DNA of 18,795 nt, from the NCBI GenBank assembly GCA_048939465.1, contig JBHLPL010000032.1, positions 1 through 18,795 of the forward strand, given 5' to 3'. This document shows positions 1 to 18,795 of this stretch, in pieces (positions within the stretch are counted from its first letter, which is position 1; each line of letters starts with the position of its first letter). This DNA is from Promethearchaeota archaeon. Its GTDB lineage: Archaea; Asgardarchaeota; Odinarchaeia; Odinarchaeales; JBHLKK01. The notes under the pieces are model-generated. The model made no database searches. It was not told the DNA's origin and saw only the letters and a program-made list of their open reading frames with translations. Made by a program: the position numbers and the translations under genes.

Positions 1-1
1 G

Positions 2-3000: not shown

Positions 3001-3499
3001 TACCTCCACAACCGGAACTCTCACGGTAGTCAAGGAGATTACTGATATTACAGTCGTATCGATGCCTAGCACAATAACTGGAGGATCTGCCTTTACAATT
3101 GTTATCTCTCTTGCTGACGATGATGGTAATCCTGTGGGAAGCATTCGTGTGCGTCTCTACGTAGACGGAGTGCTCCGCAAGGAGGAGTATACAAATGACG
3201 ACGGACAGGCCCAGTTTACGCTGAGCTTGCCTCAAGGCAATTACACAATAAGGTTCAGCGGAGAAGGCAACGCTTACTACCAAAGCAGCGAATTCAGCGA
3301 TACCATTGAGGTGGGATCTGGTCTCGGAATATTCGGTCAACCGCTTTTCTACATAGCAATTGCCGTTCCGATCTGTGCGATTGCTGTTGTAGCGTACCTA
3401 TATAAAAATAAAATCTTCCCCTTTAAGAGAACATATCAACTGATTCAGGTGCAAAACCCTTATATTAAACAAGCACCAAACATAAAGAAGGGAGCATAG
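2..3499 (+). CDS. Large membrane-anchored surface glycoprotein (5'-truncated by the window): PGF-pre-PGF-like domain, about 9 tandem ~100-aa Ig-like repeats, C-terminal TM helix
   Basis: Frame is open from position 2 (GAG GGT GAT...), so GTG at 26 is probably not the true start. Repeats follow the pattern T.LSDPS...Y.D...I...L.D....P..G..V.F.Y....W..LG.D.T...G.A......R..F.GD.YY..S...G.L.V.KE. Many N-x-S/T sequons; hydrophobic LFYIAIAVPICAIAVVAYLY followed by KNK. Confidence 0.9.
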   Translation, partial: EGDSEALIVNSTMDVQVTSAKNITIKDSSFVGIESAISHGLHVEWLWCDHSSVNLTDINYATLINDHSMMGVIIHEYFSSFTVNATLEADAQADIEWPGPSDTDPIEIAVLNTTSPSLGDFSPFDRYIYASSNDIINSSEIRIYYTAEEISSLGLDENRLRMFYYNGTEWVLCDNTDVNNVSHYVWANETVLGYYYCISCFLTVTNLTDPSTGVDYSDSCTIGTYLKDIDENPLEGKTVHFEYMDGGWNYLGSDTTDSGGYASYTFDCTIVPSTYPLRVRFDGQPFVYYASSKTGTLTVNKENVTFSNFDPYIVVYTDPYILSVDIRDHDNYANYQNLDGGVLFDLYDSTGTSIIKSLGSGTISSGAATISWKIDVLPNDYKVRVYYAGNTYYNLSEQFFDLTVNKEDTSFYNYSPSAMTYDDTVTISVDLRDADNASHYENLDGETVYFELYDSTGTTFIKNLGSEVLASGTASIMWTVDETAGDYVIKISWNGNNYYNSLEYGFSVTIYGRPTELSDPSTSGTYSDYSTITTRLTDNESNPLSGQLVYFEYNDSGWMALGSDTTNASGYASITIVINLEPGNWNIRARFDGDPYYESSAQTGTLNVSKETTELSDPSTSIEYGDTAAISTTLTDDEGSPLSGLLVSFELNVSGGWQGIGTDTTDGSGVASIQYAALELPTSYFLRVIFVGDSYYLADTYPNGVLTISKEQTQLTDPSASGFYGENVTVEVYLTDNDPNPVQGEIVIFDYYDGGWILLGSNTTNSSGYASIVVLLSISEGNYTLRARFSSTDYYSGSSRSGFLLVGKKTTQLSDPSSEVEHTDFVVMEAQLEDDDLNPIDGKQVGFYYWNGSNWKLIGTDLTNSSGWASYGFTCPWLPGTHQIRAWFAGDSNYTSSFRNGSLTVFKESSMLSNPSLSGAYSDMITISTILTDGDSPSAIAGRTVVFEYYDILFDEWRLLGTGSASTDANGKAELNLTIDFMPGQLAIRARFEGDSYFNSTSTTGTLTVVKEITDITVVSMPSTITGGSAFTIVISLADDDGNPVGSIRVRLYVDGVLRKEEYTNDDGQAQFTLSLPQGNYTIRFSGEGNAYYQSSEFSDTIEVGSGLGIFGQPLFYIAIAVPICAIAVVAYLYKNKIFPFKRTYQLIQVQNPYIKQAPNIKKGA

Positions 3500-3508
3500 G
3501 AGGGTGCG

Positions 3509-4852
3509 ATGAATTTGAATGTTAAGAAACTCGCAATATTATCCGCCATAACTGTACTATCTCTTACTGGATATCTCATACTCTCATCGATATCGTTTCT
3601 CCTGCCGCTGATTCTGTCTGGTCCTATTGTTATTGCGACCAAAGAACCCCCAAGTGAATATGACATCCTCTTAAAGAAGGCCAAAAAGCAACTAAAGAAA
3701 AGCCAAGTTGAAGTCTCCAAGTTATTACAAACATACAAGGAGATAGCTGGAGACCTGTTAGTTGAGGTCTCGCTACTGGATTTTGGTCGAAAGAAGGAAG
3801 ATGCTACTGCAGAGGATGGATTTAAAGTCTACGATATGGAAAGCTCTCATGCAGGACTGAACTTCCACTCACGTGATGAGCAACTCAAGGCTTTGAAGTA
3901 TGAGGCAAAAGCAATAATTGAAAGCCTAGCAGAGCTGGACAATGTCCCTCGAGATGCTCTGATAGGTAAGCAGGTTGAACCTCCCGTTAAGGTGAAAAAG
4001 GATAAGAATCTCGTTTCTTCTGGTATACCCAGACTGGACGTTGCCTTGGGCGGAGGATTTCCCAGGGGTTCCTCGATACTGCTCGTCGAAGATACCGGTA
4101 CCGGTGGGGATATATTTAGCTATCAATTTCTGCAGAATGGATTTGAATCCGGAGAAAGTGGATACTGCTTCTCAACGGACTTGGCCCCAAACCTCATCGT
4201 CAAAGAGTTGGAACGTAGAGGGATGAATACAGATTCATACGATAAGAAAGAGAGATTCATCCTTCTGGACGCCTACACCTACCCCGCCCTGATTACAAGA
4301 AAAACCATTAAGAAAGGCAGTAAGAAGAAAAAGAAAGAAAAAACCAAGCCCGAGGAATCCTCTGAAGTCTCTGTATCTGCCGATCCACGAAAGGTTGTAA
4401 CACTAATTACGACAATCCTTAATAAACTGGGCAAAAAGAAGATCAGAGGTTGCTTCTACACATATACAACCTATATCATGGGTCTGAAAGCAGACGATGC
4501 TATTAACTTGTTCCGTCGCCTGAGAGTTCTCGATAAAGAGTGTAACTCTACAAGCATCTATGTCGTCCACAAAGGACTGCACAACACAAGAATCATGGCA
4601 AGTCTGGAGCATATGGCCGATGGCGTTGTTGAGCTTTCTGTCAAGGAAGGTATTAAGGGCCAGCTGGAAAGATACATCAGGGTGCGCAGTATGAGAGGCC
4701 GTGACTTTGATGATGCTCCTATTCCCTACAATGTCTTGGGAAGGGATATCCGACCGATGGAAGACACTCAGATACGCCACAAGGCCCCTGAGGAATCAGA
4801 GATTGATATTGAGAAGGTTAAGGCTAAGCTCAATTCCTTCTATGAATCCTAG
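3509..4852 (+). CDS. Membrane-anchored KaiC/RAD55-like (RecA-superfamily) protein with degenerate Walker motifs
   Basis: N-terminal TM helix. SSGIPRLDVALGGGFPRGSSILL and ADGVVELS...RYIRVRSMRG are KaiC/RAD55 hallmarks. Walker A reads EDTGTGGD (no Lys) and the Walker B position lacks Asp. RBS GGAGGGTG upstream; 9 nt after the previous stop. Confidence 0.85.
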   Translation: MNLNVKKLAILSAITVLSLTGYLILSSISFLLPLILSGPIVIATKEPPSEYDILLKKAKKQLKKSQVEVSKLLQTYKEIAGDLLVEVSLLDFGRKKEDATAEDGFKVYDMESSHAGLNFHSRDEQLKALKYEAKAIIESLAELDNVPRDALIGKQVEPPVKVKKDKNLVSSGIPRLDVALGGGFPRGSSILLVEDTGTGGDIFSYQFLQNGFESGESGYCFSTDLAPNLIVKELERRGMNTDSYDKKERFILLDAYTYPALITRKTIKKGSKKKKKEKTKPEESSEVSVSADPRKVVTLITTILNKLGKKKIRGCFYTYTTYIMGLKADDAINLFRRLRVLDKECNSTSIYVVHKGLHNTRIMASLEHMADGVVELSVKEGIKGQLERYIRVRSMRGRDFDDAPIPYNVLGRDIRPMEDTQIRHKAPEESEIDIEKVKAKLNSFYES

Positions 4853-4858
4853 GGCTCA
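4833..4858 (+). other. Weak candidate 26-nt BHB intron spanning the stop codon of the KaiC-like gene
   Basis: Central helix AGCU(4827-30)/GGCU(4853-56), CAA bulges on both strands, 2-bp flanking helices containing G.U, GCTCAAT direct repeat. Excision gives ...KLNDD* (stop 4867-69). Confidence 0.3.
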
Positions 4859-5000
4859 ATGACGACTAGCAGCAACTTTTGAGTAGAGGAGCTTTGGGAT
4901 AAAACACATCCCCTTTCAGTTTTCTGATATTCTCTCACTGTCCAGTGGTTGTTATCCCCTTCTTTGTCTGATGTGAGAAAACCTCTTCCCGCAAGGAACT

Positions 5001-5016
5001 AAAAAAACATATAAGT
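5001..5016 (+). promoter_or_regulatory. Putative BRE/TATA promoter of the Yip1-domain gene
   Basis: A-tract followed by CATATAAG about 50 nt upstream of the TTG start. Confidence 0.5.
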
Positions 5017-5062
5017 TAATGATTCCCTTTATTCCATAGCTAGAAACGGACGGGATAAGAAC

Positions 5063-5752
5063 TTGAGTGATGAAAAAGTCGAGATTGAGAGGCTCAAGGA
5101 AGAATTGGAAAGCATCCGGTCTCAGATTCAGTATCTGAAGGAGCGAGCCGCTCGTGGAGAGATATCCACTCTGGATTTCGTAGGTGAGAAGAAAAGGCTG
5201 GAAGCAATCTTACTGCGTCTGATTAGAAAGCTGGATGAGTTTAAAGGAGAGGTACCTCCTACCCCGCCTGCGCCTCCTCTGTTTGGTAAGGTCATGGGTG
5301 TCTTATCAGTAGACGAACTCTGTTATAGGCAAATCCTGAATGATGATACGGGAGCCGCCGTAGGCATTGCCTTTCTAGTAATCGGCAGCTTGCTGCTGGG
5401 CGTAACTGCAAGTCTATCTACGTTGCCCTTGATCGGTCTATTGGATCCGAGAATCAGAGCTATTGTCGGGTTTGTAGGCCCTCTGGCTCTGGGCTTGGTC
5501 TTTGCCAAGGTTGTAGGGGGTTCGAAGGGAATATCGCTCTCCAGAAGCATATCCCTTATTGGCTTTGCCTCATCCCCCCTGCTATTCCTCGTAATCTGGT
5601 TGGCATTCCATTTCCCCCTCGTTCCGTATACAAACGAACTTACTGTGATGGCAGCCAACATTATTACAGCATTGATTCCTTTGGCCTGGACAATTATTGC
5701 TGAATTCAAAGCTCTGGGTGTAATGTCAAAGGAATCCCTGCAAAGAACTTGA
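5063..5752 (+). CDS. SHOCT-like/coiled-coil + Yip1-domain membrane protein (possibly extends to 5907 after splicing)
   Basis: N-terminal QYLKERAARGEISTLDFVGEKKRL resembles the SHOCT pattern; Pro linker; Yip1-like start LFGKVMGVLSVDELCYRQI followed by four TM helices. The unspliced ORF lacks the usual last Yip1 helix. Confidence 0.7.
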   Translation: MSDEKVEIERLKEELESIRSQIQYLKERAARGEISTLDFVGEKKRLEAILLRLIRKLDEFKGEVPPTPPAPPLFGKVMGVLSVDELCYRQILNDDTGAAVGIAFLVIGSLLLGVTASLSTLPLIGLLDPRIRAIVGFVGPLALGLVFAKVVGGSKGISLSRSISLIGFASSPLLFLVIWLAFHFPLVPYTNELTVMAANIITALIPLAWTIIAEFKALGVMSKESLQRT

Positions 5753-5772
5753 ATGGAAAACCGGGGCCTTCT
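5735..5772 (+). other. Candidate 38-nt BHB-like (bulge-helix-loop) intron in the Yip1 gene
   Basis: Central helix AAGG(5729-32)/CCUU(5767-70), AAU bulge, 5-bp intron stem CCCUG/CGGGG. Excision joins GAA|TCG in frame to SFIMYLFVSIIGF..., stop 5905-07. Confidence 0.5.
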
Positions 5773-5899
5773 TCGTTTATCATGTACTTATTCGTTAGTA
5801 TAATCGGCTTTTCTAAACTAAGCTACTCATCGATATGGTTAAATAACATCAAACATAAAGAGGTTAGTAGTAAAACCGGACAAATCAGTGTGAGTTACC

Positions 5900-6571
5900 A
5901 TGACTAGTGGTGAAATTAAAGCAGGGATAGTGATATCGTCGATTCTCAAAGAATTCCCTGAGATTTATATAAGCAGAGAGAAGGATTCAGGTGGTGCAGC
6001 AAAGTATCGAGTAGAGAGCCCGGAAGCATCCTTATGCGAATTCACGATCTCAAATGAAGAAATAAAGATCGCATCAGACTCTAGCTTTGGTGGAGGAGAA
6101 AAGGAGAGTGCAATCAGACACCAAATAGAAAGTCTTCTGAAGACGCTCAAGATTCCTTCTGAAGCTCTTGAAATGCCCGCTGCAAAAGCCGTGGCGTTTT
6201 CAACCCCATCCATGCAAGCTACGTCCGTAGCGGCACCCCCACCAGCTCCGGCCCCTACAGTACCGACGGCCGAATCAGATGCACCAGGTACAAAACCACT
6301 TGATATCAATGGAGTCCAGTTCATGCCTATCACAGGCTTGGTTCCCATACCTTCGACGTCCTATGTTGCCCAAATCGGGAAGATAGGCGATTCTTGGGGA
6401 GTTGGAGTATTTAGAGGAAGGCGAAGCATAGGGATTGAAAGAGTCTCCGAGCTCGAAAAAAACCTAGTTGTAGGTGCCATGCAGAAAATTATTGTCATTC
6501 CGCTGTTTTCCCCCTATGCAATGTCAAGAGCTGTTGATCGCCTAATGAAGATGGCCAGAGAACCAGAATAA
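5900..6571 (+). CDS. Hypothetical two-domain protein with Pro/Ala-rich linker
   Basis: 223-aa ORF with natural composition; two globular-looking segments separated by AAPPPAPAPTVPT. Confidence 0.8.
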   Translation: MTSGEIKAGIVISSILKEFPEIYISREKDSGGAAKYRVESPEASLCEFTISNEEIKIASDSSFGGGEKESAIRHQIESLLKTLKIPSEALEMPAAKAVAFSTPSMQATSVAAPPPAPAPTVPTAESDAPGTKPLDINGVQFMPITGLVPIPSTSYVAQIGKIGDSWGVGVFRGRRSIGIERVSELEKNLVVGAMQKIIVIPLFSPYAMSRAVDRLMKMAREPE

Positions 6572-6753
6572 TCAGATTATGATCCTCCAAAAGGCTCCAG
6601 TGTTCCATTCTCTCCTTGCTCCGACTTATTTTCGTCCCAGTCTGTCCGCCAATTCCAGAAAGCGATACGACCTGACATCTGGAATTCTTCACCGACCTCC
6701 TCCTTCTGCTTTAGGATTCTAGAATCCAAAGAAGTGGACAGACAAGGCCGTGG

Positions 6754-7452
6754 TCACCCTATCTCTCGGACTGAGCCTCCTTTTGTCACGTACGGGATCC
6801 AGTTCGAAGGAGGGACGCTTAGTCTTCTCTTAATTCTAAGCATGGGCCGCTCTTTACCTTCATACTCTCTAATCCTGAATTCCATTGCAACATCTGCGCT
6901 ATACTCTATCATCCTTGCGCATTTCTCATCCACGCTTTCTGGAACCAGTAAAAACACGATGCAGCCATACTTTTTGGTAATCTCTCGCATAAGCAAACCG
7001 AAGCCGACTGCATGTCGGAGAGTAAAAAGAGTGGATAGAGTCAGCATTGAATCTACCACACATACGGTCCTGTCTTTCATTTTTCCTTCAGTTATTTCGT
7101 TGATCTCTCTGAAGGCTTTCATGACCTCACGACCGCTGGAAGGATTTGTTATAGTAAGAGGGGCGGTTTTTTCGGCAAACTTGAAGCAGTTTACAAAGAA
7201 AAGCTTCTGCTCTTCTTCAAACTTCGTCGCGATTATTCCAGAGATCTTCAACTGTTCTCGCAGTAGGTCAGGAGAGTGACCGAAAGACATGATTACGCCA
7301 TAATTGCCCTTCTCTAATTCATGAGAGATTATGCTGGAAACCAGTGTCCATCCACTAGCCGTTGAAGTATCATTCATGGCTACAAGACTCTGTTGCGGAA
7401 ACCCTCCCCCGAGCAGTTTATCCAGAACGGGGAAATGTGTTTTTAGCCTCAA
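6754..7452 (-). CDS. Stand-alone KaiC/RAD55-like protein with degenerate Walker A (possibly extends to 6577 after splicing)
   Basis: KTHFPVLDKLLGGGFPQQS; Walker A reads NDTSTASG; Walker B VCVVDS is intact; IEYSADVAMEFR. TTG start with GGGAG upstream. Confidence 0.85.
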   Translation of the reverse strand: MRLKTHFPVLDKLLGGGFPQQSLVAMNDTSTASGWTLVSSIISHELEKGNYGVIMSFGHSPDLLREQLKISGIIATKFEEEQKLFFVNCFKFAEKTAPLTITNPSSGREVMKAFREINEITEGKMKDRTVCVVDSMLTLSTLFTLRHAVGFGLLMREITKKYGCIVFLLVPESVDEKCARMIEYSADVAMEFRIREYEGKERPMLRIKRRLSVPPSNWIPYVTKGGSVREIG

Positions 7453-7589
7453 TTTAGACTCCCGGTCAATTAAATTGTCTACTCATCCAGTATCTCATTC
7501 ATTGTATAATTGTCTTTTCATCTTGAATAAGGGCTGGAGATTCCATTCTTAAGAGTGGGCAAGAAAGCTAGCTTCTAACCAATGTTGAG

Positions 7590-7597
7590 TTTTAAAG
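7590..7597 (+). promoter_or_regulatory. Putative TATA box for the candidate ncRNA
   Basis: TTTTAAAG about 25 nt upstream of the GC-rich structured block starting near 7620. Confidence 0.4.
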
Positions 7598-7619
7598 TTT
7601 TGATACCGGTTGATAACGT

Positions 7620-7830
7620 GGGTGGAGCGTTAAGACGACTGTCATCGCTGCCAGATCAGCTCTGGTGCGGGAGCATTTTCAAAGTCCCGCCCTCTTTCCC
7701 AGTTTGCTAGAACGGGAGTCTCGGTAAACAGGCTCTTTCGTGCGCGTGATGAAGTTCCAAAGTGGTGTGGTACACTATACTTGGCCCCTGACGAAAGACT
7801 CCACGCGATAGCTGGAAGCGGTTGACATTT
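7620..7830 (+). ncRNA. Candidate unclassified structured RNA with a box C/D-type kink-turn
   Basis: Closing stem GUGGAG/CUCCAC; hairpins CCAGA/UCUGG, GCGGGA/UCCCGC and UCCC-GUUU/GAAC-GGGA; stem CUUUCG/CGAAAG flanking GUGAUGA(7746-52) and CUGA(7788-91). No ORF >60 aa in the track; upstream TATA, downstream T-rich tract. Confidence 0.5.
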
Positions 7831-8008
7831 AGTTTTCTCTCAGTCCTTTTGTGCTCTCAATAGTGCGTACTGACGTCAGGAAGTTGAGTTACGCATGGAA
7901 AGTTCTTTATATTGATACAGCAAAGCTTTAATTTCATAAACAGACATTTATACCGAATATCCCAAATATTTTACAGGAAAGAATGATTATCTCACGGGGA
8001 AGGCAAAA

Positions 8009-10770
8009 ATGGGAAAATCCAAATCCATTTCTTCTGTTGCGGTCTTATTCTTAATGCTCGCTCCGATTTTTCTGGCGGGCTCAGTCTATGGTATTGAACC
8101 AGGTATTCAGACTGAAAATCAATGGAGCCCATACTATAAGTTTCGCAGAATGGTTACAATAACCGAGCCAGGTATCTCTGATAGAATTCTTGAACCCGTA
8201 GATGTCTATCTGACCTTTCCACAGGAACAAGCAATCGTAAACAGTTGCAGAGTAGTTTACTTCAATGGTACTGCATGGAACGAAGTTACTAGTCAGGTCT
8301 GGAACGAAACAACATACATGGATTTAGGATCTACATATTACAACTCGTGCACCGTAACGTTCTTAGCCAACGTGACAGAGTCCACCCAGAAAATCTACTA
8401 CGTGTATTACGATGACGCGAACAATACAGCTCCAGACTATAACAGCAGAATTTGGGCGGTCGTTAGGAATAGTTCAGCTCCAGTGGACGAGTATTACCCC
8501 TGGATATTTGACAACTCCACGGGCACAAACTATACTTACTCAGATCTTATTGAAATAAGGACACCGATCGCAAATGAGACCGCCTCTATCATTCTGTCAG
8601 ACACCACGAGACCCGGATCCGACTGGGGCGGTCCCGTATGTGGCTTAATAACAGCGAAGTATAACGACTCGCTTGCTCTGAACACCTACGACGGATATAG
8701 GGCGAGTTCATTCATGTTTGTAGGGGAATTTGCCATAGATCCCTTCAATATGGATTCTACTGACGCAAGTATTTACAGGGTCAATGTGGGGCCTAACAAT
8801 CCGGCTGAGGCATGGATACCAGAGGGAGGAAGCGTGTATATTGAGCAAAACGGTCCGCTTTTTGTAGTTATAAGAATCAAGACAAGCGACGGTGGATATG
8901 AAAACGGAGCTTGGACAGTAAACGGAACGTCTGTGAGTTATACTGGGCATACGGATTCCTATTACCCATCAATGATTCCAGCTAATCATGGAAGCGGATT
9001 CTTCAATTACACATATACTTATCGGTTTTATTATCATGGATGTAACCTTCTGGCCGAACTGGATCAGAAGATTCAGGTAAACGTTCAAATCCCAGGAGCC
9101 GGGGCCTATGTTAAGAACTACGGTGATTGGCCTCACGTCTTAACCTTTACAGCGAATTCATCGGTCGAAGCAGCCCTGCAGAATCAGCATGCTTGGTACG
9201 GATCAAAATACGGTCTATACAATGAATCCTCAAGCTCCAAGCGAAGGGATTTCCCGATTGAACCTTGGTCTGCATGGTACGATAATGAATCTGGCAGCGA
9301 CCCCTCAATTGGAATTATTACTACAAACGATACAATTGGCTGGGAAGTATTGTCGCTTGTTGTTGGTGGCATAGGACCAAATATTATGCTTCAGCAAATC
9401 CTGAGAGAGGGCCACCAAGGGGATTTATATCTTATGCAGAATGGAACGGTTTTCACTTACCACTATTACATATACACATCGGCCTTTGGAACCAACTTCA
9501 CCGAAATAAGGAACATGGCATTCCAACTCAATGATCCTCTGAGCGTCTCCCTAAAAGATTCAACTGTTATGACAGTTGCCCCATCTATAACTCCCGTTAT
9601 GATGATCGCCAGCGAAGAAACAGCATTCACGGTAAATTTCACGGATCCGGGAACTAATGAACTGATTACGAACGCAATGGTTGAATATCACGCTGATTGG
9701 CAACCTGCAGGAACATGGACTATCATGTTTGAATCAACGCCTGGGGTATCGGGCGAATATCAAAGAAACATAGCCGCCCCCTCAGATCTGGGGTCTCACA
9801 GTATTACGATAAGAGCAGTAAAATCTGGCTATCCCACCGCGTCTCATACTATCGATGCGCAGATTCTGGCAAAAACCACGATATCTGGGCCTCTTGCCCT
9901 TAGCGTTCTCATAGGTGAAAACAAGACTGTTACCGTAACGTTGATGCGCACTGATCGGGGAGTTCAAGAGCCGATTGATGATGCGAATATAACTATTAGT
10001 GGCTGGAATGGAACACACGTTGTCACCCCGCTTGGAAACGGTCAGTACAGTGTGTCGTTTTACACAACAGGACTTGATGAATCCGATGTTGGGACATATG
10101 ATGTTAGTGTTACAGCCAGTAAAACAGACTATCAGAATCAAACAATCCTGATTGGAGTAACTGTAAGCTCACCACCAGGACAACCAGTCATAGTCTCATT
10201 CGACTGGCTGATAATCATCGTACTGTCGGCAGGGCTGGTGAGCGCAGTGGGTTACTCGTTATGGAGCAGCTACCTCCGTTATCCGCCAATAGTCAGGAAG
10301 ATCAGGAAACTGCACAAAGCCATAAGGAAGGACAGACCCCCCGCAAAGTCAATAGACGTAAAGGGAAGAGATGTTCTGGTGCATGAAACGTATCGTAAAA
10401 CAGCCGGGGAACCACCAAAAGTATCGAGAAAGGAAGTCCCTGAAGAACCTCCCATAATTGTTTCACATGAGCCGGATGTCGAATTATCGCACCCTCCCCC
10501 GGATGAAGCATCGCCTACCGAGGAGGTTGTTGAGGAAATGCCCCCAGAGGAGACTGAGGGAGCGCCTCCGGCAGAAACTGAAGAGATACCGAGGGCCGAA
10601 GAACCAGAACCTCCACCGGAGACAACTCCTGAAGAAGAGTAGCTTCATCGGGAACTGGTGAGACCGAGGGACCCATCAGATCTTTGAGGGAAGAAGTGTT
10701 ACACGAACTTCTCGGACTGCCTCCAGAAGAATGTAGAACGTTGCCTGAATCGATGAAAACGAAGGATTGA
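8009..10770 (+). CDS. Type I membrane surface glycoprotein (signal peptide, DUF2341-like N-domain, Ig-like domains, TM, acidic Pro-rich cytoplasmic tail). Unspliced 8009-10642 (877 aa); spliced join(8009-10635,10650-10770) 915 aa
   Basis: Signal peptide; RRMVTITEP...EPVDVYLTF...YYVYY N-domain pattern; TM WLIIIVLSAGLVSAVGYSLW; basic YPPIVRKIRKLHKAIRK segment; E/P-rich tail. Second exon inferred from the BHB intron. Confidence 0.85.
10636..10649 (+). other. 14-nt BHB intron containing the TAG stop codon
   Basis: UCC/GGA exon helix, UGAA/UUCA central helix, GAA and UCG 3-nt bulges, one G-C closing pair. Canonical cuts join GA|G in frame to a 39-aa protein-like tail. Confidence 0.7.
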
Positions 10771-10836
10771 AGGACAGCTTCGCAGAAAAGGAACTAGCGG
10801 TTAATCTGAAGTATCATCGACGTTTGAAATCAGACT

Positions 10837-10899
10837 GGGTGGTGGGTTGGACTGAGCAGGGACGAAAGAGAAAACGGCTCTGATGATTCCACTCCCCCC
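10837..10899 (+). promoter_or_regulatory. Hairpin with kink-turn over the likely translation start region of the glycosyltransferase gene
   Basis: CUGA(10852-55)-GC.../GC-UCU-GAUGA(10877-86) K-turn geometry; G-rich 10837-51 can pair with the C-rich 10888-99 tract. Confidence 0.35.
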
Positions 10900-10971
10900 C
10901 TTTCGAGACTTTTTAGAGAACTCTCAAACAGAAGACTGAATGACCTATTCCTGATTTCAGCTTCTTTTATC

Positions 10972-12948
10972 GTGATACTCTCTATCGATTTTCTGATTGA
11001 TCTGGGTGTTTTTTTCGGCGTCATCGTGCTGCTTTGTTTGGGTTACGTGTTCTCAGAGATGTTCTCAGGAAGAGAAAGGACCTTTATGGAAAAACTGGTA
11101 ATCAGCTTTGGAGCTGGAATGATACTCGTTATCATGACTGCAATCTTCTCTTCGCTCCTAGATCTCTGGCATATAATCGACGTTCTGCTGATCGCGGAGT
11201 TCTTCTTCTTAATACCCATTGTCATCTTTAAGCGATTGATCTTGAAGCATCAAGGAGGCTGTACTGCTCCCACCAAGTTTGAATTTGCCCTGATCCTTTT
11301 TATTATCTCTTTTGTTGTCATTCTATCCTTGCTAAGACATGCACCCTTTCACTCGAGGGACGAATATGCACATCTTTATGTAATTCGAAATCTGCTCCTC
11401 AACAAGTCCTTTGCTGAGGATTTTCCGATAGTGTCTGGTGAAAGCTTATGGGCGGGAGAAACATACGGAAGGTATTTCTTTGTCTACACTTATGCTGCAT
11501 TGGTGAAGTTCGGAGGACTCGACTTCTACTCAATAGAGCGCATTTCAATATTCTTTACAGCCATGATTATCCCGTCAGTGTATATCTTGGGAGCAAGGTT
11601 GTCTAAAGTCAAGAATGTTGAGTCCCAGTGGCTGGGTATTATTGCTGCTGTTTTCGTCAGCGTAAATCCTGCAATCGTATATTTTTCTATCAGGCTTTTC
11701 CCCGATCTACTTGCAGCAGCTCTTGTGATACCATCTCTTTTCTTTTTCATAAGCTGGAAAGACAAAGGATACAAAGAGGATATACTGAGTTGTGCCTTCT
11801 TTATCTTCTTGGCACTATTCACAAAACTTCACGGTCTAGTATTTCTATCAATTTTGGTAATCCTTGGAATAATAAGTCTTCAAGACAGGAGAAAGTCAGC
11901 CATCTTGCTCAGCCTTTGTATTCTGGTACTCATGTTTATTCTTGTTTTCGGATCGGAGATCCCTTTCCTAAGCGAAATAACTGTTCGTTTGCAGAATGTG
12001 GTTCAGACCCTTTATGAAAGCATGGCATCTATGGGCGAGACCATAGGTTCCATGTTTGTTCACACATATGGAGTCTATGGATACTTGGGGTATTACCCGC
12101 AGGCAGTGTTTGTGCTTCTCATATTGGGCAGTGGGTACTTCCTCCTTAATTACCCGAGAAAGCACATCTTGGTCCTATTCCTGCCGTTGGTTGCATACTT
12201 GGCTCTTTTCTGGTTTGGCTCATTCGGGGGAGGAACAAGGCACTTCTTACCGTGTTACCCGATACTGATGATACTTGCCGCAGAAGGAGCGTTGACGCTC
12301 ACAAAACGGGACTGGCTTGTTCCGACGATAATTGCCAGCGTCCCCCTTTTCCTTATCCTAGTAACCTCTCTATATCAGATCTCGGATTTACCTCTTTTGG
12401 GTATTCTCCCCTTCTACACAGCCATTATAGCATTCGTCGGCGGCACGCTAATAATCTCCAAAAAGATACTGGAAGGTCTGAATCTGAAGAATACGAGCAG
12501 TAAGATGATTTGGGGGATAACTGTAACGGTTTTGCTTGCTTCATCATTCAGTATCTACCAAAGCTATATTTTCATAAGCAACGGAGCGTACAGTGATAGT
12601 TTCTACCCTGACATTAACGTAGCAGGAGACTGGCTAAGGACAAACACCATGGTAAATGTTGTCATTCTCACAAACGGCTACGTTCCCCTGCCCTACTTCG
12701 CAGATTATCGTTCTGCCCGTGTTCCTCCCGAGACTGAGCAGGAGTTCTTAGACATAATAGAAAATGGTGAAGTCGACTATGTTGTTATTTTCACACAACC
12801 AATCCTAAGCGAGTTTGTGAAGTTTCCGTACTTGGAGAAATATATCGATATGCCAATCCCGGAAGCAGTGGAGATATTCCGCTACCACAATCCAACCATC
12901 ACACTATATAATGGGACATCATTCGTCATATGGAGAGTTATGACGTAA
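10972..12948 (+). CDS. Multi-pass GT-C fold glycosyltransferase (ArnT/PMT/GT39-like)
   Basis: More than 12 TM segments; luminal-loop acidic motif SRDEYAH; GGGTRHFLP motif; C-terminal domain GDWLRTNT...VILTN...YF...VDYVV. The frame is open upstream to 10828, so the true start may be earlier (CTG 10852?). Confidence 0.8.
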   Translation: MILSIDFLIDLGVFFGVIVLLCLGYVFSEMFSGRERTFMEKLVISFGAGMILVIMTAIFSSLLDLWHIIDVLLIAEFFFLIPIVIFKRLILKHQGGCTAPTKFEFALILFIISFVVILSLLRHAPFHSRDEYAHLYVIRNLLLNKSFAEDFPIVSGESLWAGETYGRYFFVYTYAALVKFGGLDFYSIERISIFFTAMIIPSVYILGARLSKVKNVESQWLGIIAAVFVSVNPAIVYFSIRLFPDLLAAALVIPSLFFFISWKDKGYKEDILSCAFFIFLALFTKLHGLVFLSILVILGIISLQDRRKSAILLSLCILVLMFILVFGSEIPFLSEITVRLQNVVQTLYESMASMGETIGSMFVHTYGVYGYLGYYPQAVFVLLILGSGYFLLNYPRKHILVLFLPLVAYLALFWFGSFGGGTRHFLPCYPILMILAAEGALTLTKRDWLVPTIIASVPLFLILVTSLYQISDLPLLGILPFYTAIIAFVGGTLIISKKILEGLNLKNTSSKMIWGITVTVLLASSFSIYQSYIFISNGAYSDSFYPDINVAGDWLRTNTMVNVVILTNGYVPLPYFADYRSARVPPETEQEFLDIIENGEVDYVVIFTQPILSEFVKFPYLEKYIDMPIPEAVEIFRYHNPTITLYNGTSFVIWRVMT

Positions 12949-13049
12949 AGACTTCTTAACTCAAGCCGGCGTGGATATTTGGCAGAGAGCAGTTCAATCC
13001 GAAACGCATATATTGGGTCTGCTCCAAATTGTCTTTAGGAGAAATTTGA

Positions 13050-13922
13050 TTGGTACTCCCTGATGTCCAATCAATCCATGATTATGGTGATTTTAGAGCT
13101 ATGGAGAAATCTTCCATGTCTGAAAAAGATGAAAGCAAACTTGAACACATTGCTGCTGGCATTGAGGAGTTGAGCGCGACATCTTCGGAACTGAAAATGT
13201 TTTTCAAGCAGTTTATGGATCACATGGCAGAGCAGCTGGGCGATATAATGAGTGCGATCGACTCAGTTAAGGCCGATATCACCAAACTTGGCCAGATTCC
13301 CGATGCTTTCGGTGAATCAGCAAAGCTCCTAGAAAAAGTTCAGAAGACACTGTCGGAGGAAGGCGTCCCCGCCGGTCAGGCCGGTGGCGCAGATCTTAGT
13401 GGATTCGAATCCAGAATCGAAGAGCTTGACAGTAGACTCGGAGGCATTGAGGGCGATGTAAAGTCAATTAGCAACGCTGTCACTGCATTAGGAAAAGCCA
13501 CAGCTGAAGTAATCAATAAGTTGTCTGGTATATCAGAAAAGGCAGCCGTTTCAACTGCGTCCGCTCCTGAACCTGCCCCGACTCCTGCCGTGTCTCCACG
13601 ACCCCCCAAACCTTCAAAGGCTGTAAGTCAGGCTACTGAGCCTGCCAGAGTAAAAATTGGCACTTCTACCGGTCCTGTTGCAGATATACTTGATGCGCTT
13701 GAAGCAGATATTCAGTCGGGGAAAACCGCGGAAGACCTGGCCAAAAGCTTCGAGGACTCCCGAGACCAACTGATGAAGCATATTTCATACCATCCAGCAT
13801 ACTTCGAAATGGGGAAGGTCATCAAAGCCCTCACGAAATATGGCGACAGCCCTCTTGATAAGAACTCGACAAAGCAGCTTATTGAAAAGATTGAGACCTG
13901 GAGAGAGCGTATGCGGACATAA
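13050..13922 (+). CDS. Hypothetical coiled-coil protein with Pro/Ala linker and C-terminal four-helix domain
   Basis: Heptad-rich N-terminal two-thirds, APEPAPTPAVSPRPPKP linker, ~80-aa helical C-domain. Start uncertain (TTG 13050 or ATG 13101/13116). Confidence 0.8.
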   Translation: MVLPDVQSIHDYGDFRAMEKSSMSEKDESKLEHIAAGIEELSATSSELKMFFKQFMDHMAEQLGDIMSAIDSVKADITKLGQIPDAFGESAKLLEKVQKTLSEEGVPAGQAGGADLSGFESRIEELDSRLGGIEGDVKSISNAVTALGKATAEVINKLSGISEKAAVSTASAPEPAPTPAVSPRPPKPSKAVSQATEPARVKIGTSTGPVADILDALEADIQSGKTAEDLAKSFEDSRDQLMKHISYHPAYFEMGKVIKALTKYGDSPLDKNSTKQLIEKIETWRERMRT

Positions 13923-13925
13923 TCT

Positions 13926-14889
13926 CTATATCCTTAATCCTTCTAATAGGGCAACCATTATTGAAGCTGCTGTCAAATCCGCTGTTGTCCCGGGATTCAA
14001 CAGCCCTTTTTTTTTGTTTAGCTGATCATCAAGCTTCCAAAGTAAGTCCGTTCCTTCTTGACTCAAAAGACCCCCTTCTTTGAGTATTATTCTTGCTTTC
14101 TTGCTTACAAGCTCTGCAGGTCCTTGACCAGCTTTTCTCTTTATTAAGGTATCTTGAACATGCGACAATATCGTAAGATAGGTGTGCACTGTTGCAATAT
14201 TGACATCATTTGTCTCTTTCAGTGTATCAAAGAAGGCTGGATATCCGATACCGAAGGTTATCTCGAAGTCTGTGACCCACTCTCGACTGACATCGTCCCA
14301 ATCTGAACTTATCTTAAATAAGTCAAGAAGTGTAATCTGACGTTCAAGGATATCAGATGTAGACCTAGAATCCGTTACGTCGAATTCGGGAGAATGACCA
14401 AGTCCACCAGGTTTTATTGCGGCTATGGCCTCGTATAACTCAACAGCATCTTGGGAAGTTGTATTTGTTAAGACATATCCAAGGTTTTCTCGCAGTCTCT
14501 TTGCATTTACGGTACCAGTTGCCAAGCTTATCCCTGCCGACACGCTAAGTGGGGACAATAGAAGGACAGTTCCGAGGTTTATGTTTCCTCCCCTTTGCCA
14601 CTTCTGTGTTTCTTCTACTGCCAGTCTCATATGCTTTCCGATTTCCACTTCTTCATATCTTTGACTCTGTGCGGCACTAACACCCTTCGTAGCTAAAGCT
14701 CGCATTTGGGGATTGATGGCAATGGCACCCGCTAAGAAATGTTCAAAGACTGTTTTGGCCGTATTCCTAGTTCGATGGACATTACCCGGTTTGCCGCCTC
14801 GCCACAGGTTTCGGCCATCCACTCACTTCCAAGAGTACGGCAAAACTAGCGCACTGAGCTACAAATTCTGCATCTTTTGAAACATTCAT
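13926..14889 (-). CDS. citG: Triphosphoribosyl-dephospho-CoA synthase (CitG) family protein, intron-containing: join(14889-14810,14790-13926), 314 aa
   Basis: Exon 1 MNVSKDAEFVAQCASFAVLLEVSGWPK plus exon 2 PGNVHR...GGNINLG...DTLIKRK...LNPGTTADLTAA give the complete set of CitG motifs. GGAG and TATA upstream of ATG 14889. Confidence 0.9.
14791..14809 (-). other. 19-nt BHB mRNA intron in citG
   Basis: Minus strand G-GCCG-AA|A-CCU-GUGGCG-AGG-CGGC-AA|A-C: 4-bp Watson-Crick central helix, two AAA bulges, 3-bp intron stem. Excision restores W-P-K-P-G-N. Confidence 0.9.
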
Positions 14890-14926
14890 CCTTATCTTCT
14901 CTCCGATAAGGGATTGAGTTTCACCT

Positions 14927-14934
14927 ATATTAAA
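14927..14934 (-). promoter_or_regulatory. Putative TATA box of citG
   Basis: TTTAATAT on the minus strand about 40 nt upstream of ATG 14889. Confidence 0.5.
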
Positions 14935-15094
14935 TATTAATATCTTCTTAGGCCTGCTCGCAACCCGCATGATTCTTTGGAAGTCCAGAACAGATACGCA
15001 CCGCATCACAAATTCTGCAGCAACACAGTCAATGTAAAACCAAAGACTGAGAGATCTATTCGAATTAAATCCGGGGGATCTTCAAAAGAAAAAT

Positions 15095-15120
15095 GAGTAA
15101 AAAACCTAGGTTTTTTACTC
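15095..15120. repeat. Perfect 26-bp palindrome overlapping the ferredoxin stop; possible terminator hairpin
   Basis: GAGTAAAAAACCTAGGTTTTTTACTC is its own reverse complement. Confidence 0.85.
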
Positions 15121-15297
15121 CAATGTTATCGCGGCCTCTGGGCAACTAGATTCGCAAGAACCGCATTCTATGCATGATTCAGGACAGACAACGTGTGATT
15201 TCTTGTCTTTTATTTCAAAGCAATTGGGTTCCGCAGGACATACGTCGTAGCAATCTCCACATCCTGTACATTTTTCTAGATCTACTGTAGGAGGCAT
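15115..15297 (-). CDS. 2[4Fe-4S] ferredoxin
   Basis: CTGCGDCYDVCP and CIECGSCESSCP motifs; strong RBS GAGGTGA at 15304-15310. Confidence 0.95.
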   Translation of the reverse strand: MPPTVDLEKCTGCGDCYDVCPAEPNCFEIKDKKSHVVCPESCIECGSCESSCPEAAITLE

Positions 15298-15425
15298 CTC
15301 TTTTCACCTCGCAAACCTTTAATCTATCCATATAAAAAGCTTTTTACCAAGTTCGTATGACTCTGGTCCTCAAATGAAGCAAAGAATTATAAATTCTGTT
15401 CAAGATAGAACTTAGCAAAAGTTGA

Positions 15426-15902
15426 GTGAGAGAAATGACTGCCAAGAGAACGATCTTCAGTCTGCTCAAGGCTGTTAGCCTAATCTTTGCGGCAACCTTT
15501 GCAGGTTTAGGTTTTGTTCTATCCTATGACTCGGCTACCCTTGCCTCTAGCCTTTCAGGACAGCAAATCAACATCAACCACACAGTCAACGCTACTCATG
15601 CTACTATTTCTGCTTCATGGAGCGTATCTCATAACGGATTTCTATACGTGTATGATATGAATATTACGATGCAGCTGTATGCGGACACTGTTTCAGGTCC
15701 CCCAGCGGATGGCTCCACGACACTATTCACACTCGCTCCAGGCACTAGTCAGCCCATCGGTATCGAATTTACGATACCCATAGCCGTGTGGATGTCAGCA
15801 TCTGCGTGGATAGTTTACGGAACAACGGAAGGGACTGCTATGATCGCACAGATAGCCTTCGTCGCATTCAGTCTTACATCGAACTATACTATTGCTGTCT
15901 AG
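15426..15902 (+). CDS. Membrane-anchored beta-rich (LEA_2/Ig-like) hypothetical protein
   Basis: N-terminal TM helix, then alternating beta-strand pattern with N-x-T sequons. Start may be ATG 15435. Confidence 0.7.
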   Translation: MREMTAKRTIFSLLKAVSLIFAATFAGLGFVLSYDSATLASSLSGQQININHTVNATHATISASWSVSHNGFLYVYDMNITMQLYADTVSGPPADGSTTLFTLAPGTSQPIGIEFTIPIAVWMSASAWIVYGTTEGTAMIAQIAFVAFSLTSNYTIAV

Positions 15903-15914
15903 GGGTGGTAAACG

Positions 15915-16373
15915 ATGGGTGTAAAGAAAGGAATATTCTACGCGATATGGTCCATCGTAAGCATGGCAGTTTTGCCATTCTTGGGAAACAGAGTTGCGGC
16001 CAGCTATGGATTTCACTTTGTCTTGCTCGAAAGCATGATGTATTTGATCATTGGAGTGGCAGCAATCTCGGCAACATTATCTTTCCTAGAGAATGCCCTT
16101 TTCGAAACACATACAGCCGCCAGTGCAGCATTCGGAATTAGCAAACACATAATCTACATATGGTACATCCTGACATTTCTAGGAGCAATGACGTCATTTA
16201 GCATCGGCCCTCCGTCGCTACCTGCAGCTATTGATATCCAGATTCGGTACCTATTGCTGGAAGTGCTGCTCATCATAGGAATAACTATCAAACTCATAGT
16301 GTACATGTATCAGGCAGCCTTTGCTAAAGATCTCCGTAAGGTTAAGGAGAAGCCATTCAAAGAAGTCAAATAA
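15915..16373 (+). CDS. Hypothetical 4-TM membrane protein
   Basis: Four hydrophobic segments and a basic C-tail; RBS GGTGG, 12 nt after the previous stop (operon). Confidence 0.8.
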   Translation: MGVKKGIFYAIWSIVSMAVLPFLGNRVAASYGFHFVLLESMMYLIIGVAAISATLSFLENALFETHTAASAAFGISKHIIYIWYILTFLGAMTSFSIGPPSLPAAIDIQIRYLLLEVLLIIGITIKLIVYMYQAAFAKDLRKVKEKPFKEVK

Positions 16374-16459
16374 CCAAATGTTACAGATGGCTCCCTATCC
16401 GGTAAATGACCTGCAAAAAGCACTTCTCTTATTCTATTCTTTTTCTTAGACGCTGTGTG

Positions 16460-16978
16460 TTACTGTTCGACCAGCAGTTGTCTCTGTTTCTCCAGCATCT
16501 TTCCTCTCAATCTGACGATCAGCTTGCTAAGTAGCCCGTCTACCCCTTCACCTGTTTCAGCATTGGTTGGATGAACTGGAATCTCCGGCAGATCGACCAG
16601 CCTGTGGATTTGCTCAGGAGACAAAGCTCCCGAGATGTCTTGCTTATTTGCAGCTATAACACAGGGCATCTTCCCGCAATCCAGTTTGCAGAATATGCTC
16701 TTCGCCTTATCTATCGATTCTTGATTGCTACTGTCAACAACCAGTATCGCTCCATCTGCGCCCTCTGCGAGGACTTCGCTCACAATCGAGAGGTGCTCTT
16801 GCCCCGGCGTTCCGAAGAAATGTATCTTCAAATCATCATAATCTCTGCTTCCATAGTCCAAGCCTATGGTCGTTCCCGAATTCTCAATATTGATAGTCTT
16901 TCCTGTGCTCAGCCTTTGAACCATCTTTGATTTTCCTGATTTGTATGGACCAGTAACCAGTACCTTTAGATGGTGCAT
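16460..16978 (-). CDS. Small GTPase, MglA/ARF-like (COG2229-type)
   Basis: G1 GPYKSGKS, G2 GTTIGLDYG, G3 GTPGQ, G4 NKQD. Likely start ATG 16978 after GAGGAGG (the track starts at GTG 17011). Confidence 0.9.
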   Translation of the reverse strand: MHHLKVLVTGPYKSGKSKMVQRLSTGKTINIENSGTTIGLDYGSRDYDDLKIHFFGTPGQEHLSIVSEVLAEGADGAILVVDSSNQESIDKAKSIFCKLDCGKMPCVIAANKQDISGALSPEQIHRLVDLPEIPVHPTNAETGEGVDGLLSKLIVRLRGKMLEKQRQLLVEQ

Positions 16979-17109
16979 ATCATCCTCCTCAGCAATTCCC
17001 TCGTACCCCACCTTATGCTCGCACCATTGTTAAATATTTTTCGGGGGTGCTTGGACTCCTGAGAAGAAGAGCAAAGAATGGATCAGAATTTCCAGAATGC
17101 GTGACTCAA

Positions 17110-17454
17110 TCAGTATGATTTATACTTCTCTCTACGGTGGATCAAAAGCAAGTTAGTTTTGCCGCCTCCTGAAATAACTCTTAGACCCTCATTAACCTCT
17201 CGGATATGCAAGAATCTTTTTACATACGGACGGATTCTGGATTTCGTTAACGCTGAATCTGATGTAACGATGACATCATTCCCATCCCTGACAGAATTTG
17301 ATTTCGGGAGTTTCTCTCCTAAGAATTTTGTCAACTCTTCTACCATTGCATCGTTGTGTTCCGACAGCTGATCTGCGTTAACAACTATTGTTACGCTTTC
17401 CTTATTCTTTTTGGATTTCGGCAATTCAGTCACACTCTTACTGGAGTGAACCAC
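17110..17454 (-). CDS. rpl22e: Ribosomal protein eL22 (L22e)-like
   Basis: VIVTSDSALTKSRIRPYVKRFLHIREVNEGLRVIS aligns by eye with eukaryotic eL22 [35 protein letters not shown]; basic N-terminus. Start may be TTG 17424. Confidence 0.7.
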   Translation of the reverse strand: MVHSSKSVTELPKSKKNKESVTIVVNADQLSEHNDAMVEELTKFLGEKLPKSNSVRDGNDVIVTSDSALTKSRIRPYVKRFLHIREVNEGLRVISGGGKTNLLLIHRREKYKSY

Positions 17455-17490
17455 CGCTGGTGATTCTGTTTACGTCCTACTACTGAAGAG

Positions 17491-17499
17491 TATAAAAAA
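17491..17499 (-). promoter_or_regulatory. Putative TATA box of the eL22-like gene
   Basis: TTTTTTATA on the minus strand upstream of the ORF. Confidence 0.5.
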
Positions 17500-17523
17500 G
17501 TTCCGAAGCGATTTCTGACGGGA

Positions 17524-18744
17524 TTATTCCGGTTTAACGGATCTGAGGAGGGAATACACTCTTTCTGCTACCTCATATGCATGACTGATCGCTGATTCTC
17601 TTGTGGTGTCCCATAATTGAACACTGCAAATAGGCTCACCTTTTTCGACAAACGCCCCAGGCGGTGGTATGTCCACGATATGCCTAATCTTCATCAAGTC
17701 TGGAATTATGCTTGCTTGTCTGGCAAACAATACCAGTTTTACGGAGCACCCCTTCGTCAAGATAGGGGTAGCTCTAAGATCTCCAAGACACGCTCTAATA
17801 TGCTCTTTAACCAAATTCAGACCTGAGACCTCCTCGATACATTCAAGAGTTCCTTGGAAACGAGGATTGCATTCCATGATGATTGGAGTGTCCTCCGGTG
17901 AGATTATGAAATCAAAACCATTTGAGCCGGCCAATTTGAAATCCTCTCCAAGTTTCAGTGAAGCCTGAATGATAGACTCGATGACATCTTCTTTGTCCTT
18001 TAGAGGCACAATGTTTCCACAGTAGCTAAAAGGTGCGGTAACGCCCAGCCCTCTCAAACCTATCAGCTGCTCGTTAGCGGTTACTGATACGCATTTCTCT
18101 CTGTCGCATAGGATAGAGACACTGACATCAAGCTTACCTTCTACATATTTCTGCACGTAAGCAGGTTCTCCCTTATGAGTCGAGATGATTTCCCATGCAC
18201 TTCTGAGTTCACTGTCTCTCTTTGCAAGCTTTAGCCTGAACCCCCCTGAAGTTGCATATGGTCTTAGAACGACTGGATATTGAAACTTGCTTGCTACAGA
18301 GATCGCATCCTCAAGATTTGTCACCCTCTCTGTTGGTGGTATCGCTAATCCAGATTTCCTGGCACGCTCAAGAAATTCGATTCTGTCTCTTACCTTCCGG
18401 ATTACTTGAGGCTGGTTCCCTAGGACCGGAGCTATTTCTCCCAGAGAGTCCCATAGATCTGGATAATCGTCAAGACCACTACTAACTAGAACATAGTCTA
18501 CCTCTTTGTGTTTCTTGGCCATTTTGAATGCAAGCTCCACCAGTTTCATGCCTAACGGGGCTTCAGATTCTGTTGGATGTTCTCCGAGGCCATATGTTTT
18601 GATCGCCTCGACATCATCTACGGTGCTTCTGAGGTCTTGGTCTCCCCAATAATCTACGGCGTATACTTCATGGCCTATTTTCTTGGCCGAGACCGCAGCT
18701 GGTCTGGAATTCGAACCGACTATAAGAATCTTCAATCTCCGCAA
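17524..18744 (-). CDS. ATP-grasp carboligase (COG2232-like)
   Basis: ILIVGSNSRPAAVSAKKIG..AVDYWGDQDL N-terminus; QKYVEG, YCGN, GSNGFDF, ECNPRFQGT and GEPICSV motifs. Confidence 0.88.
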   Translation of the reverse strand: MRRLKILIVGSNSRPAAVSAKKIGHEVYAVDYWGDQDLRSTVDDVEAIKTYGLGEHPTESEAPLGMKLVELAFKMAKKHKEVDYVLVSSGLDDYPDLWDSLGEIAPVLGNQPQVIRKVRDRIEFLERARKSGLAIPPTERVTNLEDAISVASKFQYPVVLRPYATSGGFRLKLAKRDSELRSAWEIISTHKGEPAYVQKYVEGKLDVSVSILCDREKCVSVTANEQLIGLRGLGVTAPFSYCGNIVPLKDKEDVIESIIQASLKLGEDFKLAGSNGFDFIISPEDTPIIMECNPRFQGTLECIEEVSGLNLVKEHIRACLGDLRATPILTKGCSVKLVLFARQASIIPDLMKIRHIVDIPPPGAFVEKGEPICSVQLWDTTRESAISHAYEVAERVYSLLRSVKPE

Positions 18745-18795
18745 GTTTTTTCCCTGTTTGTTCTTTTTGCTTCTTTCTTAACTTTTTTTCGATGC

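Follow-up and report, generated by a model that had tools for sequence, protein, structure and literature searches.

How can a CitG-family protein be read from a gene whose two halves lie in different frames? This question is raised by contig JBHLPL010000032.1 of the Promethearchaeota archaeon assembly GCA_048939465.1, class Odinarchaeia, which was analyzed over positions 1 to 18,795, the 18,795-nucleotide (nt) stretch hereafter called the window. On its minus strand, a CitG-family gene (Pfam PF01874) is split over two frames by 19 nt, 14809..14791 (ACCTGTGGCGAGGCGGCAA). Combined structural and comparative analysis suggests that these 19 nt are very probably a bulge-helix-bulge (BHB) intron in the citG pre-mRNA, removed by splicing. 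The gene is thereby divided as follows, in window coordinates:

13926..14790, minus strand: citG exon 2, comprising the last base of the split Lys codon and a further 287 codons followed by the stop; it holds the CitG domain.
14791..14809, minus strand: predicted BHB intron of 19 nt, ACCUGUGGCGAGGCGGCAA; nine other sequences have homologous inserts of 19-27 nt at the same codon.
14810..14889, minus strand: citG exon 1, from the ATG at 14889, with 26 codons plus AA, the first two bases of the split Lys codon.

The open reading frame (ORF) starting at ATG 14889 reads MNVSKDAEFVAQCASFAVLLEVSGWPKP and then VARRQTG followed by a stop; without splicing, this first frame ends after 35 aa, closing in GWPKPVARRQTG. 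The remaining CitG-family protein, from KPGNVHR onward, lies in the other frame as a 298-aa ORF (13926..14822), which matches PF01874 over profile positions 17-283 of 284 (E 3e-64; 217.8 bits against a gathering cut-off of 27). Exon 1 ends in GGA TGG CCG AA and its protein aligns with the N-termini of uninterrupted homologues, whereas exon 2 begins with A CCG GGT AAT GTC CAT in the second frame. Deleting the 19 nt in silico yields a 314-aa ORF containing EVSGWPKPGNVHR, the junction of which, LLEVSGWPKPGNVHR, resembles that of uninterrupted homologues (for example, LLEVSGYPKPGNIHR); the predicted junction peptide of the joined exons is VSGWPKPGNVHR. The original prediction, made from this DNA alone, had described the two halves in different frames, the 19 extra nt with an AAACC direct repeat, and a cut after the second nucleotide of each bulge that removes exactly 14809-14791 to give GWPKPGN and a 314-aa ORF, all of which were found on the minus strand. 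The name citG is used here as a family label, by PF01874 membership; in the NCBIfam equivalog test for bacterial CitG/MdcB, the triphosphoribosyl-dephospho-CoA synthases of citrate lyase or malonate decarboxylase systems, the best score was 46.9 bits against a cut-off of 282. Proteins of this family are widespread in Asgard archaea and Bathyarchaeia.

Two origins of the insert were considered and rejected. The flanks show no similarity beyond AAACC, at which the likeness expected of a tandem duplication ends. A mobile element was rejected on the grounds that a genome search found the insert only once in the whole genome and that no homing-endonuclease gene lies nearby. A search against Rfam gave no match within the window.

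The window is a contig of a metagenome-assembled genome (MAG), which leaves room for the suspicion that the insert is an assembly or sequencing artefact. However, contigs of four public runs cover 14500-15100 (601 bp) without any difference. Two of the four runs look like one data set, yet the runs come from different studies, one being labelled a mangrove metagenome, and the public-run contigs carrying the insert have depths of 6, 8 and 13.5. In addition, homologous inserts are present in nine more sequences, which stem from other projects. The 19-nt insert is real DNA, and an artefact, the first objection that the original prediction had named against itself, is practically out of the question.

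The host genome, an Asgard MAG, measures 1.96 Mb at 91% completeness and contains a single citG copy. In the genome collection, class Odinarchaeia comprises seven species-level genomes in two families, including one labelled Odinarchaeota and the closed 1,418,269-bp genome of Ca. Odinarchaeum yellowstonii, the citG of which is also interrupted. Five of the seven genomes have citG, and all five genes, from both families, are interrupted at the same codon. So are those on five further contigs reached via truncated protein calls, one of which duplicates a relative designated G001 and another the relative G004, giving a comparative set of ten distinct intron-bearing sequences. Their inserts measure 19 (four versions), 24, 25 (two versions), 26 and 27 (two versions) nt; these five lengths cover all three frame classes, and the inserts of 24 and 27 nt keep the frame but contain TGA. 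Outside the class, no interruption was seen in the 23 citG loci that were read from other Asgard families, nor, according to the search output, in two more. Searches of protein collections found no uninterrupted citG within the clade, and scans of sequence collections with a degenerate intron pattern returned, among the matches listed, one true locus, in an Odinarchaeota MAG, GC-rich bacterial chance matches being dominant. The naming is itself in conflict: the genome collection assigns this MAG to the Ca. Odinarchaeum class, whereas the nearest CitG proteins at NCBI are labelled as from 'Candidatus Hodarchaeota archaeon' MAGs.

For exon 1, read in its own frame, comparison among the relatives gave ratios of nonsynonymous to synonymous divergence (pN/pS) of 0.04-0.46; the corresponding range for exon 2 was 0.18-0.36, and synonymous divergence (pS) was 0.3-0.57. 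None of the ten sequences has another break, and pN/pS is about 0.2 in both exons. Judged by these ratios, both exons are under purifying selection; the two pieces would therefore both be translated, each in its own frame, and would need joining. These values also bear on whether a small insertion has turned citG into a pseudogene, as the broken frame and the lack of any full-length protein of the clade in the protein collections searched might indicate. Against decay, the break sits at one codon in two GTDB families and in a more distant contig group despite the synonymous divergence, both exons keep their low pN/pS, the insert retains its structure while changing in length in an otherwise intact ORF, and no second citG copy exists in the genome. 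We regard a pseudogene as highly improbable, and both decay and artefact are excluded as far as the sequence data allow.

Public annotation does not call a pseudogene either, as the original prediction had expected of pipelines, but a 5'-truncated protein of 259-284 aa. Such calls, made by NCBI and other pipelines alike, would fit a gene whose exons are never joined, the functional product being an N-terminally truncated CitG, with exon 1 serving as a leader or coding for a small peptide of its own; the second frame here does open with a GTG, at 14822. In that case, however, the conserved motif would be cut in two, and exon 1 is homologous to the N-termini of uninterrupted CitG proteins and under purifying selection in its own frame. 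Moreover, the second frame of Ca. Odinarchaeum has no start codon between an in-frame TGA and KPGN. A truncated product is thus quite unlikely.

The reading as a BHB intron makes specific demands on the RNA around the insert. The elements of the putative motif, listed from the 5' side of the transcript, are:

14812..14815, minus strand: 5' strand of the central helix, GCCG, exonic (made up of the final G of the Trp codon and of CCG, the Pro codon); invariant in 10/10 sequences.
14809..14811, minus strand: 5' bulge AAA, with the predicted cut between 14810 and 14809 (cut rule according to PMC2738675).
14797..14808, minus strand: intron hairpin, CCU / loop GUGGCG / AGG; its stem has 2-7 bp in 10/10 sequences.
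14793..14796, minus strand: 3' strand of the central helix, CGGC, intronic; CGGC in six and CGGU in four sequences, always pairing with GCCG.
14790..14792, minus strand: 3' bulge or internal-loop strand AAA, with the predicted cut between 14791 and 14790; AUA in the relative G004.

In this model, GCCG at 14815-14812 pairs with CGGC at 14796-14793, the hairpin stem is formed by CCU (14808-14806) and AGG (14799-14797), and G14816 and C14789 form a closing pair outside the central helix. All of the pairs named beforehand (GCCG:CGGC, CCU:AGG, the closing G-C and the two AAA triplets) are present. Folding of a local window of about 40 nt gave minimum free energy structures with the central helix, the 5' bulge and the hairpin in 7/7 sequences folded, the central helix having a probability of at least 0.97. 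Shuffled or random 19-nt inserts at this site produced an ORF-restoring BHB in 0.1-0.4% of 200,000 trials, and the core pattern occurs once in the window (0 expected) and once in the genome.

All ten sequences read GCCG / AAA / hairpin / CGGY / A(A/U)A / CC, and in each of them an in silico cut after the second nucleotide of each bulge triplet rebuilds GWPKPGN. The 5' bulge is AAA in 10/10; the 3' strand is AAA in nine and AUA in G004, where the Lys codon survives only with a cut after the second or third base. In the ten-sequence alignment, 90.5% of cells are paired; sliding the partners by 1-3 columns lowers this to 20-47%. Double changes are seen at three pairs of the hairpin, from C-G to U-A beside the 5' bulge and from G-C to A-U deeper in the stem; a set of seven sequences had contained no double compensatory change. 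The covariation score of 0.163 (shuffled mean 0.112) was reached by 0/500 shuffles and exceeded that of every slid control. The central helix is paired in 100% of cells. The hairpin loop varies freely in sequence and length, all six loop positions differing among the four 19-nt versions, whereas the BHB nucleotides are invariant among these versions, down to the synonymous last position of the exonic CCG; uninterrupted homologues have CCT and AAG at the Pro and Lys codons. As for the alignment of relatives proposed in the original prediction, the same-codon insert was borne out in every citG of the class, but the covariation expected of GCCG and CGGC is confined to G-C to G-U changes, the double changes being in the hairpin. 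A further exon helix that had been thought possible, GUGGAU:GUCCAU, lacks conservation beyond the window's own family (f1).

The genome encodes enzymes suited to such a reaction. One of its two EndA paralogues (contigs C90 and C139), alpha (204 aa), retains Tyr, His and Lys at their positions and has gained an insertion near the N-terminus, and its best solved relative is the catalytic chain 3P1Z_B of the Aeropyrum pernix heterotetramer. In the second paralogue (191 aa), Val replaces the catalytic His; this His-less protein is best read as a structural beta-like subunit, which together with alpha would make up an EndA of the broad-specificity type. Asgard EndA has been described as an (alpha-beta)2 type with a loop for broad specificity (PMC5829648). 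Two RtcB genes are also present. One of them lies inside a 973-aa open frame (contig C31, 2961-5708, minus strand), where the RtcB profile matches in two parts, positions 1-57 and 45-426, separated by some 460 aa that look like an intein.

Furthermore, citG is not the only gene of this genome with such an insert. In kae1/tsaD (contig C69, about 30126-30160, minus strand), removal of 25 nt rebuilds QGPG|LGPCLR, and the motif is a textbook hBHBh' with an 8-bp outer, a 4-bp central and a 5-bp inner helix; kae1 is split or has in-frame stops at the same profile position in the relatives G001, G003, G004 and G006. In pyrG (contig C116, about 17805-17841, minus strand), a 31-nt insert follows codon 15, and a cut by the BHB rule rebuilds VMSGIGKGATAAS and the GKG nucleotide-binding motif; its inner helix is poor by simple pair count. 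At least two BHB inserts, of 28 and 32 nt, are found in ahcY (contig C118, about 350-520, minus strand), with inner helices of 9 and 11 bp and cuts that rebuild GGCEE|TTTGV and TKWDFD|NIYG; ahcY is uninterrupted in the three genomes of the Odinarchaeum family, and its inserts occur only in the window's own family. The cbf5 of this genome has a TruB_N domain without interruption. A genome-wide screen combining BHB geometry with ORF joining showed no excess over a mirror-rule decoy, its joining filter being dominated by junctions of neighbouring genes, and yields no intron count.

An alternative in which the RNA stays intact is recoding at the ribosome, either by bypassing from a take-off AAA to the second AAA or by a programmed frameshift. 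Translational bypassing has its precedent in gene 60 of phage T4, and it is the only rival explanation that makes use of the direct repeat: AAACC supplies matching take-off and landing codons in 9/10 sequences, the gap contains a hairpin, and a stop codon lies one codon past the take-off site in the 24-27-nt versions starting with CCT or TCT. The landing site in G004, however, is AUA, and bypassing gives no role to the exact spacing of a 4-bp helix and 3-nt bulges or to the G-C/G-U conservation of GCCG:CGGY. A frameshift, in turn, cannot serve inserts of 19, 24, 25, 26 and 27 nt and would bring extra residues into the invariant PKPGN motif. The kae1, pyrG and ahcY inserts, moreover, have the same BHB geometry without such repeats. 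Recoding is very improbable.

Several points weigh against the reading as a spliced BHB intron. The outer exon helix consists of a single G-C pair, or of GG:CC across a 3x3 internal loop, and the 3' splice site does not lie in a clean bulge; of the two clean AAA bulges originally envisaged, only the 5' one is therefore retained. The 3' site thus departs from the canonical hBHBh', the motif is a relaxed one, and with so weak an outer helix it fits only the relaxed classes. Motifs of relaxed classes are reported to be cut by (alpha-beta)2 and epsilon2 enzymes (PMC5829648). A 71-nt fold fails to recover the motif, its stability being like that of shuffles (z 0.24). No double compensatory change is found in the central helix, the exonic strand of which is also constrained by coding, and the ten sequences are related, so that counts over them overstate their independence. 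A tree of CitG proteins does not place the two main families with the intron as sisters, though their monophyly is not rejected (approximately unbiased test, p 0.124); one origin of the citG intron is still the simpler reading, because the core is near-identical and the position the same. Finally, the splicing of the citG transcript is something that we infer from its sequence; none of the public runs listed for this stretch was an RNA run. Set beside these points, the predictions that could be checked in sequence, namely position, lengths, helix and bulges, hairpin covariation, selection, enzymes and other introns, came out in favor of the BHB-intron reading first made from the letters of this DNA.

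We thus propose a putative model for the expression of citG, in which the enzymes that cut and join the RNA are inferred. Initially, the transcript would fold locally, with the exonic GCCG pairing with the intronic CGGC. This central helix would be flanked on one side by a 3-nt bulge closed by the intron hairpin and on the other by a 3-nt AAA strand, weakly closed by exon-exon pairs. A heteromeric EndA, with a catalytic alpha and a structural beta subunit, would then cut after the second A of each AAA. Afterwards, RtcB would join the exons and probably also circularize the intron. The joined message, GGA UGG CCG AA|A CCG GGU, would be translated to the 314-aa CitG-family protein, and unspliced RNA would give only the 35-aa peptide.

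Upstream of citG, one further element was read by eye from the sequence:

14926..14943, minus strand: A/T-rich box, 37-54 nt upstream of the citG ATG, a possible TATA-type promoter element.

A gene for a 60-aa 2x[4Fe-4S] ferredoxin stands directly upstream of citG, here and in contigs of the same family. About 2.2 kb from citG, a small ORF (17110-17454, minus strand) has a weak ribosomal-protein-L22e-like match; contigs of the Odinarchaeum family have a comparable ORF some 0.5-0.6 kb upstream of the citG gene (L287, 272-607; L289, 356-694). The window also encodes an Arf/Ras-type small GTPase (16460-17011, minus strand; Pfam Arf, E 3e-14), typical of Asgard genomes. At its other end, the contig start cuts off a protein (26-3499, plus strand; at least 1157 aa) that contains Ig-like repeats (Big_3_5, Big_1, MG4) and is followed by a KaiC-like ATPase (3509-4852, plus strand). 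No Pfam match was obtained for four other ORFs (181-877 aa).

Taken together with the introns of kae1, pyrG and ahcY, a frame-restoring intron shared across a class in an Asgard metabolic gene suggests that the splicing of coding messages at BHB motifs is broader than thought, in archaea that are the closest prokaryotic relatives of eukaryotes. Public records, including that of the closed Ca. Odinarchaeum yellowstonii genome, list citG as a 5'-truncated protein; where such introns occur and are missed, gene content and metabolic reconstructions are therefore distorted. More tentatively, and with somewhat less than even confidence, we consider that EndA/RtcB splicing of coding messages may be an ancient and regular part of how Odinarchaeia express their genes. 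Some micro-introns would have been fixed since the class ancestor (citG, kae1) and others be restricted to one family (ahcY), perhaps tens per genome, overlooked by annotation that calls truncated or split ORFs.

Among known systems, endonuclease-type splicing of archaeal mRNA is documented for cbf5 and for one haloarchaeal 5' untranslated region (UTR) (PMC7714728, PMC10485636). The literature searched documents BHB introns in coding regions only for crenarchaeal cbf5; on mRNA introns of Asgard archaea or Odinarchaeum it held nothing, the Asgard papers found dealing with tRNA introns only. These abundant, non-canonical Asgard tRNA introns share the presumed machinery and the motif with citG and come from a BHB-rich lineage, but the available text of both reports concerns tRNA genes only and mentions no protein-coding BHB intron (PMC11291895; preprint 10.64898/2026.10.13.758758). 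The BHB intron in the 5' UTR of Haloferax volcanii HVO_1309 is a further case in which EndA acts on mRNA at a BHB (PMC7714728; PMC10485636), although it is a UTR intron on which no reading frame depends, in a host with a dimeric enzyme from a single gene. A close parallel is the intron of crenarchaeal cbf5 pre-mRNA, of 16-44 bp and cut between the second and third bulge residues (Watanabe 2002; Yokobori 2009, PMC2738675). Both cbf5 and citG would have short coding introns (16-44 bp and 19-27 nt, respectively) in a highly conserved motif, with relaxed or unconventional BHBs in which the predicted cut fits the exon borders. Both hosts have heteromeric EndA, and each intron persists throughout a clade of order or class rank, with lengths that may or may not keep the frame. 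They differ in gene family and lineage, citG belonging to PF01874 in the Asgard class Odinarchaeia and cbf5 to another family in Crenarchaeota; moreover, cbf5 splicing was established by cDNA and in vitro cleavage, while that of citG is predicted.

Outside archaea, the splicing of HAC1/XBP1 relies on the endonuclease IRE1 and twin stem-loops, is regulated by stress, and is completed in animals by RtcB. As in citG, a small frame-changing intron is removed by a non-spliceosomal endonuclease at stem-loop sites; however, the enzyme is IRE1, not EndA/TSEN, and the sites are twin stem-loops, not a BHB, which makes this an analogy rather than a membership. In the available text of PMC8718801, RtcB is likewise named in XBP-1 splicing. 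If its removal were conditional, the frame-restoring citG intron could work as a switch, much as in HAC1/XBP1.
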